Origin: Escherichia phage YUEEL01
Length of the DNA: 64,000 nt
Direction: 5' to 3' (one strand)
Sequence record: NC_054935.2
Part shown: positions 17,257 to 51,240 of the stretch, one piece after another
Position numbering within the stretch: position 1 is the stretch's first letter
Layout: every line of letters begins with the position of its first letter
The notes under the pieces: model-generated
What the model saw: only the letters and a program-made list of their open reading frames with translations
Told to the model about the DNA's origin: nothing
The model's database searches: none
Made by a program: the position numbers and the translations under genes

Positions 17257-18095
17257 TTCAATTCGTAATTCCAAGCTATCAACGTGTAGGGGCAGTTTCT
17301 GCCCTTGATATGTTTCCGACTGATTATGAACCTCATATTGTAGTGCGTGAACACGAAGAAAAAGCTTATTATGATGCCTATGGGTCTAGAGCTAAAATTA
17401 TAACTATTCCTGATGATGTAAACGGAATTGCCGGTACTCGTAAAGCAATTACTGATATGTATGCAGGTCAACGAATCTGGATGATTGACGATGATACTAC
17501 TATCCGTATGAGTTCAATACGAAAGAGAGACGATAAACGGCGCGTAGATAAAATTAATCAATTAACTCGTGAACAGTTCTATGAATTGATTCAATATGTT
17601 GAGGATGCCATGGATTGCGGATATTATCATGGCCATGCTCGTCTACCAATTTTTAAAATTACTTCATCTTGGGGTAATTATCGTGAAAATTCATATGGAT
17701 TCACGAATACATGGTATGACCTCGGAAAACTTACGACAGAACAAATTGGGTATGGAAAAATTGATTTATGCGAAGATATGTATGCATTTCTCAATTTAAT
17801 TAATCAAGGTTATCCGCATTTGGCCTTGTTCAAATATCTAGTTGTATCTGGAAAAGCACAAGCTCCTGGCGGGTGTAGTTCAATTCGTAGTAATTCTAAA
17901 CATAATAGAGCGCTTGAGCAAATCAATAGAGAGTTTCCAGAGCAAGCTCGTTGGAAAACTTCTAATATTGAAAAACGAAAATCGTTGGGTGAAGAAGACG
18001 AGCCATTAAAGGTTCTTCGCATGTGCGTTTCGCGTAAAGAAAAATCAGAAGCATTTCATAAGTTTAATGCTATTCATCCAATAGCAGTTGATTAA
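17253..18095 (+). CDS. putative GT-A-fold glycosyltransferase occupying the T4 beta-glucosyltransferase slot
   Basis: N-terminal FVIPSYQR (GT2-like first strand) and WMIDDD (DxD motif); no similarity to T4 beta-gt as I remember it; ATG at 17253 overlaps the gene 42 stop, track start is an upstream GTG. Confidence 0.55.
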   Translation: MIQFVIPSYQRVGAVSALDMFPTDYEPHIVVREHEEKAYYDAYGSRAKIITIPDDVNGIAGTRKAITDMYAGQRIWMIDDDTTIRMSSIRKRDDKRRVDKINQLTREQFYELIQYVEDAMDCGYYHGHARLPIFKITSSWGNYRENSYGFTNTWYDLGKLTTEQIGYGKIDLCEDMYAFLNLINQGYPHLALFKYLVVSGKAQAPGGCSSIRSNSKHNRALEQINREFPEQARWKTSNIEKRKSLGEEDEPLKVLRMCVSRKEKSEAFHKFNAIHPIAVD

Positions 18096-22520: not shown

Positions 22521-23549
22521 ATGTCATCAATAGCTTGGATTGATAATGAGTTTGCATATCGTGCATTAGCTCATTTACCTAAATTCACACAAGTAAATAA
22601 TAGTTCAACTTTTAAATTACGGTTTAGATGCCCAGTTTGTGGAGATTCAAAAACCGACCAAAATAAAGCGCGTGGATGGTATTATGGTGATAATAATGAA
22701 GGAAATATTCATTGTTATAACTGTAACTATCATGCGCCAATCGGAATATATTTAAAGGAGTTTGAACCTGATTTATATCGTGAGTATATCTTTGAAATAA
22801 GAAAAGAAAAAGGTAAAAGTCGTCCAGTAGAAAAACCTAAAGAACTTCCTAAACATCCTGAGAAGAAAATAATTAAATCTCTTCCGTCATGTGTTAGATT
22901 AGATAAACTGGCGGAAGACCATCCAATTATAAAATATGTAAAAGCTCGTTGTATTCCAAAGGATAAATGGAAATATCTTTGGTTTACAACCGAATGGCCT
23001 AAATTAGTTAATAGTATAGCTCCAGGAACATATAAAAAGGAAACACCTGAGCCTCGTCTTGTTATTCCAATTTATAATGCTAACGGAAAAGCTGAGTCTT
23101 TTCAAGGACGTGCATTAAAGAAAGATGCTCCTCAAAAATATATCACCATCAAAGCTTATCCTGAGGCAACAAAAATATATGGAGTCGAACGAGTTAAAGA
23201 TGGTGATGTATATGTTCTAGAAGGACCTATAGATTCACTTTTTATTGAAAATGGTATAGCTATTACGGGTGGTCAATTAGACCTAGAAGTTGTTCCATTT
23301 AAAGATAGACGAGTGTGGGTTTTAGATAATGAACCTCGTCACCCTGACACTATCAAGCGAATGACTAAATTAGTTGATGCAGGAGAAAGGGTTATGTTTT
23401 GGGATAAATCTCCCTGGAAATCAAAAGATGTTAATGATATGATTAGAAAGGAAGGTGCAACCCCTGAACAAATTATGGAATATATGAAAAATAATATTGC
23501 CCAGGGGTTAATGGCTAAAATGCGGTTATCTAAATATGCCAAGATTTAA
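22521..23549 (+). CDS. 61: gp61 DNA primase
   Basis: 342 aa; N-terminal zinc ribbon CPVCGDSK...HCYNCNYH and TOPRIM-like EGPIDSLF; matches T4 gp61. Confidence 0.9.
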   Translation: MSSIAWIDNEFAYRALAHLPKFTQVNNSSTFKLRFRCPVCGDSKTDQNKARGWYYGDNNEGNIHCYNCNYHAPIGIYLKEFEPDLYREYIFEIRKEKGKSRPVEKPKELPKHPEKKIIKSLPSCVRLDKLAEDHPIIKYVKARCIPKDKWKYLWFTTEWPKLVNSIAPGTYKKETPEPRLVIPIYNANGKAESFQGRALKKDAPQKYITIKAYPEATKIYGVERVKDGDVYVLEGPIDSLFIENGIAITGGQLDLEVVPFKDRRVWVLDNEPRHPDTIKRMTKLVDAGERVMFWDKSPWKSKDVNDMIRKEGATPEQIMEYMKNNIAQGLMAKMRLSKYAKI

Positions 23550-23746
23550 ATTAACCCAACTAAAGCAAATGCTAGATCTACGAATGTATCAAGAGTAACT
23601 ACTGGAATATTAACACCATGCGCAATTGCAATTGGTGATAAAATAAAGTTCCAGAGTAAAATTCCTACCATAGCAGAAATAGTAAAAGCTATACGTTTTT
23701 TATTACCTTTTATGGCATTAACAAGTGCCATTAATTTTTGTGCCAT
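23546..23746 (-). CDS. small membrane protein encoded on the opposite strand
   Basis: 66 aa with hydrophobic segments; AAGGAGG SD 4 nt before the ATG; divergent from the downstream nuclease-like gene. Confidence 0.45.
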   Translation of the reverse strand: MAQKLMALVNAIKGNKKRIAFTISAMVGILLWNFILSPIAIAHGVNIPVVTLDTFVDLAFALVGLI

Positions 23747-23790
23747 ATGTCCTCCTTTAAATTAATATTTATCACAAATTTCATAAATTT

Positions 23791-23820
23791 GTTTACTTTC
23801 TCAGCTTGTTATGGTATTAT
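23791..23820 (+). promoter_or_regulatory. T4-type early promoter upstream of the nuclease-like ORF
   Basis: gtttac, 18 bp, tattat (atggtattataaaat). Confidence 0.5.
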
Positions 23821-23845
23821 AAAATAAATTGCTGAGGATGATATA

Positions 23846-25185
<1,340 letters not shown>

Positions 25186-34107: not shown

Positions 34108-34611
34108 ATGATTAAAAATAATGCTGTTTATCAATTGAAAAAATTTGATGAAATTAAGAATTTTCCGGTACTGTCTAATACAGCTCATAATAAGTTTTGT
34201 GAACTTCTTGCTTTAACTGGCGGATATCCTTTTACTGTTATTAGTGTTAATAGCGGAATTCTTATCGGCATGATGTATATTGAAATTAGAAACTATTATG
34301 GAATGGTGTCATCGCTTATTATTTATGAAAAAGATTTTAGTCTATTGACAGAAATTGAAAAAGAAGAACAGGAAAAATTCCATATTGATATGGATTTAGT
34401 TTCTATGTATGTGGCACCAGTTGAAAAAATTGAATACCCGACTGATTTGTTGTGTAAGGCGGTTTACATTCGTCGTCCATTCGCGAATCCGGTCGGTGGT
34501 TGGGTAACTGACCAGTGGATTGAAGATGGCGTTGAACTTCTGAACGTAGTTCATGCTGGAGAATACTCTGTAGTTCCTCGTAGCGCAGTGATTAATGTTC
34601 GTGTAAGCTAG
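34108..34611 (+). CDS. hypothetical protein, paralogue of 34685..35176
   Basis: C-terminal TDQWIEDGVELLNVVHAGEYSVVP aligns with TDQWVEDGVKLYNAVFLGTYKVIP in the next ORF. Confidence 0.5.
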   Translation: MIKNNAVYQLKKFDEIKNFPVLSNTAHNKFCELLALTGGYPFTVISVNSGILIGMMYIEIRNYYGMVSSLIIYEKDFSLLTEIEKEEQEKFHIDMDLVSMYVAPVEKIEYPTDLLCKAVYIRRPFANPVGGWVTDQWIEDGVELLNVVHAGEYSVVPRSAVINVRVS

Positions 34612-49770: not shown

Positions 49771-50427
49771 TTATTTAGCCCTTCCTAATATTCTGGCCGC
49801 CTGAGCACATATTGATTCAAGGCGGTCATTACTTATATGATCATTTCTATACCAGTACATGGTTATCGTTCCAGCATAGATATTATCCAAATTAAAATAT
49901 GGACAACTGTACATGTAGTTTATTTCGGGAGTAGGCTTTTTAGTTGGTAAAAAAGCAAATTTTGAGTCGGAATAATAATGACGTCCATTTAAATGAACTG
50001 TATATTCATCCATAGTTTTATCAACAGGATATCCTCCAAGTGATTTTTCACTTATTGTTGAAGGTAATTTTCCTTCATATGCTATAATATCAACAAAATA
50101 GTTTAAGTTTTTAGGGCGGAAAGAATACACCGCACTAAAGTCTGCCTCAGATGATATATGAACTATCTGGAGTTGTTCCAGGGCGACAGATTCAAAGCGT
50201 GCATTTCTTTCCTTTTCAATAATTTCACTGTATGTTTCATACTTTGATTGCTTATAGTACTCAAAGAAACTATCTCCCCTATACCAAACAATCGCCATCA
50301 TAAATAAAAGAATTACGACAGCTACCCGGGAAGCAAGAACCTTCCCGGTAGCGTTATCTTTGAACAAGCGATCTAGAACACCAAATAGAATATCAGAGGG
50401 CGAAAATGATATTCTAGGTGCTGCCAT
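49771..50427 (-). CDS. t: holin T
   Basis: 218 aa MAAPRISFSPSDILFGVLDRLFKDNATGKVLASRVAVVILLFMMAIVWYRGDSF... matches T4 holin. Confidence 0.93.
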   Translation of the reverse strand: MAAPRISFSPSDILFGVLDRLFKDNATGKVLASRVAVVILLFMMAIVWYRGDSFFEYYKQSKYETYSEIIEKERNARFESVALEQLQIVHISSEADFSAVYSFRPKNLNYFVDIIAYEGKLPSTISEKSLGGYPVDKTMDEYTVHLNGRHYYSDSKFAFLPTKKPTPEINYMYSCPYFNLDNIYAGTITMYWYRNDHISNDRLESICAQAARILGRAK

Positions 50428-50457
50428 AGACCCTCCTTTTAAGGGTATTTATTCACA

Positions 50458-51240
50458 TTATACTCTTGGACCATATATTGCTCCAACATTTTGCCACGTT
50501 GGAGCAGACCCTATGACGGCATAACCAGCAGCACCGCCATCGTATTCATATCCTTGACCACGAATATTACATCTACCTCCTGCGGAGCCAACTTCACCAC
50601 CAGACCCGCCGCTATAGATACCGTTCACAGACCCTGAGCCTGGTGCAGAAATAGTACCAGCAGTTGCTCCTGATTGCATATCAATAGATCCGCCCGGCGC
50701 GCCAAACGGACGACCGCCACCACCGCCAAAGGTCAATCTCATTTGTGAAAAAGGAGAATAATATCCGCCGCCGCCACCGCCGCCGCCGCCAGCAATAGCT
50801 CCGCCATTATTAATTCTTAGTCTCCCACCAATATCATTTTGAATACAATGACCCCCAGCTGAGCCAGGACTATTGCTACCGCCATTACCGCCACGGCCAT
50901 ACATCGTTACACCATGTATATTCAGTTGAACATATTCATTCGGTGTATCTCCGTACATGAAGAATAAAGGAACATCTTTAGAATATGATACTAAATCTCC
51001 AGTGATATTAAACACTATAGGTGTACTACCTGCCTCAAAACACCTATCTCGGAACCATTGACCATTGAAGTTATGATCTGCTCCAAGTGTATGAATAATT
51101 TCTCTTGAGCGACCTGCAAATTGACTCATCCAGCAAGGAACACCTAATCTTAATTGACCAGCCGCTTGACTCATCCATCGTTGTCCTGTTTCATTTACGG
51201 ATGAACTACCAATCCAACCAGGAACACCAACTACTGCCAT
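50458..51240 (-). CDS. 38: gp38 long tail fibre adhesin, T2-type with glycine-rich motifs
   Basis: 260 aa; poly-Gly runs ([30 protein letters not shown]) separating variable segments; differs from the 183-aa T4 gp38 chaperone. Confidence 0.85.

Follow-up and report, generated by a model that had tools for sequence, protein, structure and literature searches.

Results

Layout of the locus

Escherichia phage YUEEL01 (sequence record NC_054935.2) carries a small open reading frame (ORF) on the minus strand at the 3' end of gene 61, the DNA primase gene. We describe here its conservation, its expression signals and the relationship of its product, a hydrophobic protein of 66 residues, to phage holins. 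The analysis covered a stretch of 64,000 nucleotides (nt) of this genome (the window), in which the region that holds the ORF, referred to below as the small gene, matches Escherichia phage 232Ecol030PP at 100% identity and many Tequatrovirus genomes at 99-100%. The + strand of the window corresponds to the counter-clockwise (early/middle) strand of T4. Genes 41, dmd, sp, 61, dam, 56 and soc follow one another on it from left to right. Further along the window, the minus strand carries the tail-fibre genes and gene t, which encodes the holin. The features at the locus are as follows.

23546..23746, minus strand: coding sequence (CDS) of the small gene, a predicted 66-residue membrane protein (MAQKLMALVNAIKGNKKRIAFTISAMVGILLWNFILSPIAIAHGVNIPVVTLDTFVDLAFALVGLI); from the ORF listing, the phrog_2024 match, the ratio of nonsynonymous to synonymous substitution rates (dN/dS) and an AlphaFold 2 (AF2) model.
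23751..23757, minus strand: Shine-Dalgarno sequence AAGGAGG, with a 4-nt spacer to the ATG of the small gene; read from the sequence.
23766..23773, minus strand: candidate T4 late-promoter box GATAAATA, with one mismatch to TATAAATA, at -13; read from the sequence and conserved in position.
23712..23741, + strand: predicted intrinsic-terminator-like hairpin (ATGGCATTAACAAGTGCCAT) followed by a T-run, which would end the gene 61 transcript.
22521..23549, + strand: gene 61 (DNA primase), the convergent neighbour of the small gene; context only.

The small ORF is a conserved gene of T-even phages

A preliminary description of this DNA, made from the sequence alone, had reported an opposite-strand hydrophobic ORF of 66 residues with a near-perfect Shine-Dalgarno sequence and an end at the gene 61 stop, and on all of these points it was accurate. 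The ORF is intact and runs for 66 codons from an ATG start, and its product has a grand average of hydropathy (GRAVY) of 1.21. In the minus-strand sequence upstream of it (GATAAATAttaatttaAAGGAGGacatATG), AAGGAGG is found at 23757-23751, followed by the 4-nt spacer. This heptamer occurs twice on the two strands of the 64-kb window, each time 4 nt 5' of an ATG: that of the small ORF and that of the holin gene t. At the other end, gene 61 stops with the TAA at 23547-23549 and the small ORF with a TAA that is the reverse complement of 23546-23548; the two genes are convergent, and their stops overlap by 4 nt inside TTTAAA.

The length of the small ORF is by itself no evidence for a gene, because antisense ORFs of 67-84 residues arise nearby by chance, as the ORF listing shows. 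We therefore considered whether it might be an accidental antisense frame in the 3' region of gene 61, conserved through recent ancestry or through the needs of a terminator on the other strand. Such a reading could call on these chance ORFs, on the early-strand hairpin that lies inside the ORF, on the omission of the ORF from the T4 reference annotation, and on one record in which the frame is broken. It is countered by the breadth and the pattern of conservation. Searches of phage records with tblastn found the small gene in 696 records when the window protein was used as query and in 932 when a divergent member was used. It is syntenic in Tequatrovirus, Mosigvirus (HX01), Gaprivervirus (VR20, EAWsc9), Karamvirus (CkP1), Jiaodavirus (JD18), Moonvirus (KM16) and Kanagawavirus (CIP9), as well as in metagenomic T4-like contigs. 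In each lineage it is the lone opposite-strand gene, placed tail-to-tail with gene 61 or near it, and the 4-nt overlap with gene 61 is frequent among lineages. The preliminary description had proposed a comparison of this interval across T-even genomes; the ORF proved to be conserved in all seven of the genera named above and frameshifted in a single record, that of phage Shinka. There, a 1-nt deletion in an A-run (L003 ~1870, equivalent to ~23695 in the window) shifts the frame, and the ORF is unannotated; the deletion may be a sequencing error in the homopolymer or else a natural knockout.

The substitution pattern is that of a coding sequence under constraint. Within Tequatrovirus the dN/dS of the small gene is 0.10-0.25, and between Mosigvirus and Gaprivervirus, where dS is saturated and dN is ~0.5, the frame is still kept. 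W32, N33 and P38 are the same in all of 29 diverse sequences, with A40, G44, P48 and G64 almost invariant, and the invariant residues persist across an identity of ~25% within the family. A strong Shine-Dalgarno sequence precedes the gene in every lineage.

As for the terminator, the hairpin at 23712-23741, which the record of phage fPS-65 annotates as such, sits inside codons 6-12 of the small gene, so that the same DNA serves both strands. It is specific to Tequatrovirus: the corresponding positions of the Mosigvirus, Gaprivervirus and Jiaodavirus loci yielded no terminator hairpin, and Rfam returned no RNA family match in 23000-24500. We rejected an early-strand terminator as the cause of the conservation of the ORF on the ground that the hairpin is restricted in this way. 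Taken together, these data make it very likely that the small ORF is a real gene, and the view that it is no gene at all appears extremely improbable. It is an old gene of the Tevenvirinae that has been kept under purifying selection in at least seven genera.

The protein family has been seen before, under other names. The window protein matches phrog_2024 over its full length (E 1.6e-31; residues 3-66 against profile positions 2-65 of 65), as do all 26 of the diverse members in our alignment A6. The annotation of phrog_2024 is 'unknown function', and its members are opposite-strand genes flanked by gene 61 and by either gene 56 or dam. They correspond to RB69 ORF029c and RB32 ORF030w, and the HX01 record notes the similarity to RB69 ORF029c. 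The family is narrow, with 21 cluster representatives among the 1.84 billion proteins covered by a profile search. In T4 the ORF is intact and 95% identical to that of the window (T4 coordinates 17738-17938, + strand; L004 3239-3439, NC_000866). It is unannotated in the T4 reference records AF158101.6 and NC_000866.4 and appears as a hypothetical protein in newer ones. Hundreds of genomes already annotate the ORF as hypothetical, and a few automated records call it 'holin'.

Three further observations concern the small ORF and its surroundings. In Gaprivervirus VR20, a second, shorter paralogous ORF (MGFLTLDVFLWNLLVVPIAAIQGVHLPQVT...) lies between the small gene and gene 61 (L006 2260-2400, + strand); it is a tandem duplication within the small-gene family, and the representatives P0098 and P0100 belong to this VR20-type paralogue subfamily. 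In the window, an imperfect direct repeat of 21 nt (23534-23554 and 23745-23765, 76% identical), both copies of which contain TTTAAATTAA, brackets the small ORF exactly, probably by chance. Finally, no stop interrupts the + strand frame for 71 codons after the gene 61 TAA (23550-23762); this open stretch, antisense to the small gene, most likely arises as a side effect of the coding frame on the other strand.

The small gene is preceded by a conserved variant late-promoter box

T4 late promoters consist of an 8-bp TATAAATA box that precedes the transcription start by about one turn of the helix (Geiduschek and Kassavetis, PMC2988020). Of the 50 late promoters listed in that work, 32 have the perfect box and 9 have an A at -13, the most tolerant position, and most of the others deviate at one position (PMC2988020). 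Early and middle transcripts of T4 have a single polarity, and either strand is used by late transcripts only (PMC2988020). Because the opposite polarity is reserved for late transcripts, the small gene would be expected to be late. The preliminary description had seen no TATAAATA promoter here and had left the timing of the gene open. This view has to be revised: polarity alone implies late expression, and a box with a single mismatch, GATAAATA, begins 27 nt 5' of the ATG, its sole deviation from TATAAATA being at -13.

An equivalent late-type box was found in every lineage examined. It reads AATAAATA in a second Tequatrovirus type and in Mosigvirus, CATAAATA in Gaprivervirus, Jiaodavirus and L024, and ATTAAATA in Karamvirus and Moonvirus, and it is a perfect TATAAATA in Kanagawavirus CIP9. 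The distance from the start of the box to the ATG of the small gene is 20-30 nt in most lineages (41 nt in L022), and the box is retained even where the flanks of the gene cannot be aligned. Within Tequatrovirus, three upstream contexts are otherwise unalignable, and conservation starts exactly at the box.

Boxes of the form NATAAATA number ten on the two strands of the window. Five of them stand before known late genes (soc, 34, a distal tail-fibre gene, t and 32) and a sixth precedes the small gene. The other four, at 34327 (-), 47523 (+), 50299 (+) and 54537 (-), have no obvious gene start downstream. The full arrangement of box, Shine-Dalgarno sequence and ATG occurs twice in the window, at the small gene and at the holin gene:

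49771-50427, minus strand: holin gene t.
50427-50460, minus strand: signals of gene t, namely the variant box AATAAATA, which starts 26 nt before the ATG, and AAGGAGG with a 4-nt spacer.

Judged from the position of the box, transcription of the small gene would begin at about 23760, immediately 5' of the Shine-Dalgarno sequence. Beyond the small ORF the minus strand has no predicted terminator, so that a late transcript would continue into gene 61 in the antisense direction.

An alternative is that the gene is real and is expressed early or constitutively from a promoter that has not been recognised. It gains something from the imperfection of the late box and from a weak sigma-70-like match on the minus strand (23865-23838). 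We rejected this match as a candidate promoter, since the number of such matches found is little different from that in shuffled sequence (6 found, 4.5 expected) and the match is not conserved in T4 or L010, whose upstream DNA differs; the sharp onset of conservation at the late box likewise argues against early expression. We consider that alternative improbable and, from polarity and promoter-like signals, late expression of the small gene quite likely.

The small protein resembles the transmembrane hairpin of a holin family

The N-terminus of the small protein has a net charge of +5 and is followed by two hydrophobic segments, residues 19-42 and 48-66 (the latter with a 19-residue Kyte-Doolittle mean of 1.86). 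An AF2 model built on the 29-sequence alignment has helices at 2-12, 16-42 and 52-62 (pLDDT 78). The protein ends in ...ALVGLI, straight after a conserved glycine. A possible dual start at M1 and M6 is restricted to Tequatrovirus and was dropped as an argument.

A lead to its relationships came from the remote members of the family recovered by an exhaustive profile search, two of which weakly match PF11351 ('GTA_holin_3TM'). A further link is given by tblastn, in which one remote member matched the annotated holin of phage C72C1, itself a clear member of both PF11351 and phrog_3427. PF11351 is named after rcc00556, the gene-transfer-agent (GTA) release holin of Rhodobacter capsulatus, where the rcc00555/rcc00556 endolysin-holin locus is needed for lysis and for release of the agent (PMC5026251, PMC3423380).

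When the family (alignment A6, 26 sequences) was compared by hhalign with nine PF11351 phage holins (alignment A7), the match was reported at a probability of 95.0%, with an E-value of 3.6e-8 and a score of 45.4. It spans residues 16-66 of the small protein and the C-terminal transmembrane hairpin of the holins (template columns 71-132). N33, F/Y34, P38, A40, G44, P48 and G64 are superposed, which defines a shared hairpin motif, N-[FY]-x3-P-x-A-x3-G-x3-P...G. Control comparisons scored far lower: reversed alignments gave 10.6 and 11.8, and 200 shuffles of the template columns gave a mean of 10.0 (sd 1.8) and a maximum of 23.7. PF11351 is also the sole Pfam family with matches from several members (5 of 26, weakly, with a best E of 0.03). 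Cross-matches between PHROG families are reciprocal, with a phrog_3427 holin matching phrog_2024 at 6.2e-4 and four of the 26 members matching phrog_3427, and they lead to holin families only. In remote members of 80 to 99 residues, an N-terminal extension and a W-[RK] motif are retained that resemble those of the holins. Structure-based searches added little. A profile search of the PDB with the small protein gave transmembrane-helix noise only (E >= 0.27), and the matches that Foldseek gave among viral models were all to family members, one of them labelled 'Holin' in UniProt.

Genomic context was examined as well. The PF11351 holins used for comparison adjoin endolysins, and two remote members of the small-protein family lie 0.5-1.4 kb from a phage lysozyme gene; a third, L042, does not, so that these contexts are only suggestive of a holin-endolysin pair. 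The contigs of the L040 and L035 type come from non-T4 phage, are 47-123 kb long and carry family members of 80-98 residues near a Phage_lysozyme gene. Endonuclease genes were seen in this setting: in L040 (2029-3243) a SegE-type GIY-YIG homing endonuclease gene stands between Phage_lysozyme and the family member, immediately upstream of the latter; in L035 (2191-4297) SegE follows the lysozyme gene, with two further ORFs between it and the member; and in L042 an Endonuclease VII gene is immediately upstream of the member.

The small protein is a member of phrog_2024 and, by that family's own criteria, not of PF11351. At the level of profiles, we think it probable that it is a homologue of the hairpin of the PF11351/phrog_3427 holins, and the most fitting description is that of a remote, truncated homologue of the holin transmembrane hairpin.

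The small gene is independent of the neighbouring nuclease-like ORF and dam

On the other side of the small gene, the + strand carries an early-type promoter match and two genes:

23792..23820, + strand: match to a T4-early-type promoter, TTTACT-17-TATTAT with an upstream TG, for the 186-residue ORF and dam.
23846..24406, + strand: 186-residue PD-(D/E)xK nuclease-like ORF; context only.
24406-25185, + strand: dam.

The preliminary description had called the 186-residue ORF nuclease-like and had placed a promoter for the nuclease-Dam pair in the gap before it; both assignments are supported. The ORF carries a D72...E85-x-K87 motif, and its AF2 model (pLDDT 82) matches the folds of the PD-(D/E)xK nucleases VC1899, Card1/Can2, the R2 endonuclease domain, McrC, XisH, Bax1, Mus81 and RecU; a Pfam match to DpnII (E 0.0045) stays under the cut-off. 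The promoter match lies inside an early promoter predicted in the fPS-65 record and overlaps one predicted in JB75. The ORF is directly upstream of the GATC methylase Dam, its stop sharing one base with the ATG of dam (24406), and the two could form a restriction-modification-like pair in the phage.

The same description had also seen in the small gene, the nuclease and the methylase a compact three-gene arrangement. Taken further, this would make them a single module, for example a membrane-linked restriction-modification-like or toxin-like cassette. The three genes are indeed adjacent, in the window as in ~150 Tequatrovirus genomes similar to it, and a gap of 100 bp holds the divergent promoters. 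As a functional unit, however, the arrangement does not survive a comparison of distributions: the small gene occurs in the 696-932 records given above and the nuclease in 161, T2 included. T4 has kept the small gene and dam, with the nuclease reduced to its last ~20 codons (L004 3140-3202, upstream of dam); because the early promoter and most of the nuclease ORF have been deleted, T4 is a deletion derivative at this locus. In Tequatroviruses of the L010 type the small gene is present and both nuclease and dam are missing between genes 56 and 61, and the same holds for Mosigvirus, Gaprivervirus, Jiaodavirus, Karamvirus, Moonvirus and Kanagawavirus, absence being read from genera with readable annotated genes between 56 and 61. 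In these phages the small gene sits between gene 56, or a small hypothetical ORF, and gene 61. In a Klebsiella phage, conversely, a nuclease homologue lies ~150 kb from the small gene. Strand and predicted timing differ too, with an early-type promoter on one side and a late box on the other. Since the distributions differ, the three genes are not one unit; the small gene is independent of the nuclease and dam genes, and a joint module seems to us to have very little chance of being correct.

Discussion

The data presented here establish the small ORF at the end of gene 61 as a widely conserved T-even gene, and they bring three new elements: a conserved variant late promoter, a profile-level link to GTA-type holins, and independence from the nuclease-dam pair. 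Our best explanation, which we hold with a little more confidence than doubt, is that the gene encodes a late, truncated holin-like membrane protein with an accessory part in the lysis or envelope programme.

Several observations weigh against this explanation. T4 t mutants fail to lyse, and the small protein is therefore no self-sufficient holin. What ties the protein to holins is a comparison between profiles over a hydrophobic stretch some 50 residues long: the family never attains the PF11351 gathering score of 24.8 bits, and a Pfam scan of the window protein itself gave no match at E<=1. Compared with the PF11351 holins, the small protein is without the N-terminal domain of ~60 residues, the GWRPxIGW motif and the basic C-terminal tail. 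Its second helix is short (52-62 in the AF2 model) and carries two Asp residues, which leaves the hairpin topology uncertain. Nor does its context point to lysis, since the T-even small gene does not adjoin an endolysin gene, its neighbours being gene 61 together with 56, dam or the nuclease, and the remote member L042 lies among tail genes, with no lysis gene nearby. The late box is off consensus by one base in the window and by two in Karamvirus and Moonvirus, and the activity of variant late boxes in vivo is not guaranteed (PMC2988020). Finally, we found no paper on the small ORF in the literature, including work on T4 ribosome profiling, the transcriptome and antisense or late transcripts.

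Some of these points are equally what would be expected if the product were a conserved small late membrane protein whose resemblance to holins has no functional meaning. It might then have another envelope role, for example in late superinfection exclusion, in anti-defence or as a membrane anchor for an assembly step. The missing flanking domains and the tail-gene context of L042 fit such a role, as do the absence of a significant NCBIfam match for the small protein, the presence of holin T in the same window, and a locus rich in host-interaction genes such as dmd and spackle. Against it stand the profile-profile match, which covers exactly the invariant residues of the family and scores far above the composition controls, the reciprocal cross-matches to holin families only, and a promoter and ribosome-binding architecture almost the same as that of gene t. 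We regard this alternative as possible and on the whole rather unlikely.

If the product is indeed a late holin-like accessory protein, the following sequence of events can be proposed. RNA polymerase modified by gp55, gp33 and gp45 would read the gene late from its own variant box GATAAATA, in the direction opposite to the surrounding early genes, and the transcript, beginning just 5' of a very strong Shine-Dalgarno sequence, would be translated efficiently. The product would enter the inner membrane late with its N-terminus inside, probably as a hairpin. In this topology a basic amphipathic N-terminus would be cytoplasmic, a helix at ~19-42 with W32-N33...P38 would cross the membrane, HGVNIP would form a periplasmic loop, and a second helix would follow at 48-66. 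The conserved polar, Asn-containing face (W32-N33, P38, G44) may serve self-association or partner binding. The outcome would be a modulation of membrane integrity or of the timing of T-dependent lysis, accessory to T rather than that of a primary holin. An accessory, modulatory or antiholin-like role is thus more likely than that of a self-sufficient holin, and whether the small protein acts in lysis control at all we would treat as a tentative, somewhat doubtful proposition.

A bolder and still less probable suggestion is that T-even phages carry a second, cryptic gene of the holin family, a minimal two-helix derivative of the GTA type with its own late promoter, which works with or against T. 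Such a protein might, for example, prime or delay the triggering of T, take part in lysis inhibition or depolarise the membrane late in infection. The small gene may also be what remains of an earlier holin that served before the acquisition of T.

Late transcription, lysis under holin control and lysis inhibition all have T4 as their reference system, yet the small gene is missing from its reference annotation. If the gene does encode a late holin-related factor, a component of the T4 lysis or envelope programme has been overlooked by omics work built on that annotation; a second holin would be an unrecognised component in one of the best-studied lysis systems. If the gene is unrelated to lysis, it still encodes a widely conserved, presumably late membrane protein of phages that are used for therapy. 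In either case, the T4 reference annotation should gain the small CDS and the variant late promoter, and the nuclease and dam genes should be regarded as a mobile accessory unit in their own right.

Comparison with known systems

Holin T is essential for lysis; it crosses the membrane once and has a large domain in the periplasm. Its gene shares with the small gene the strand and near-identical signals (box AATAAATA against GATAAATA, starting 26 and 27 nt before the ATG), and both products are inner-membrane proteins, in the case of the small protein by prediction. They differ in length, 218 residues in T against 66, and no sequence similarity between them was detected by a Pfam scan (E<=1) or by structure searches.

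The PF11351/phrog_3427 holins, which are found in lysis cassettes of marine and alphaproteobacterial phages, have a C-terminal hairpin that can be aligned with the small protein, and late or lysis-type expression is predicted for both. Unlike them, the small protein is about half the length and belongs to a phage that already has a different main holin.

Among the class II holins (~65-95 residues), pinholins and antiholins of other phages, the small protein would be at home in its size, its two hydrophobic segments and its basic N-terminus, and late expression is predicted for its gene too, although it is without the charged cytoplasmic C-terminus of the small two-helix holins. The closest relative is phrog_2024, with RB69 ORF029c and RB32 ORF030w, which is the same family in the same position and from which the window protein differs in nothing.

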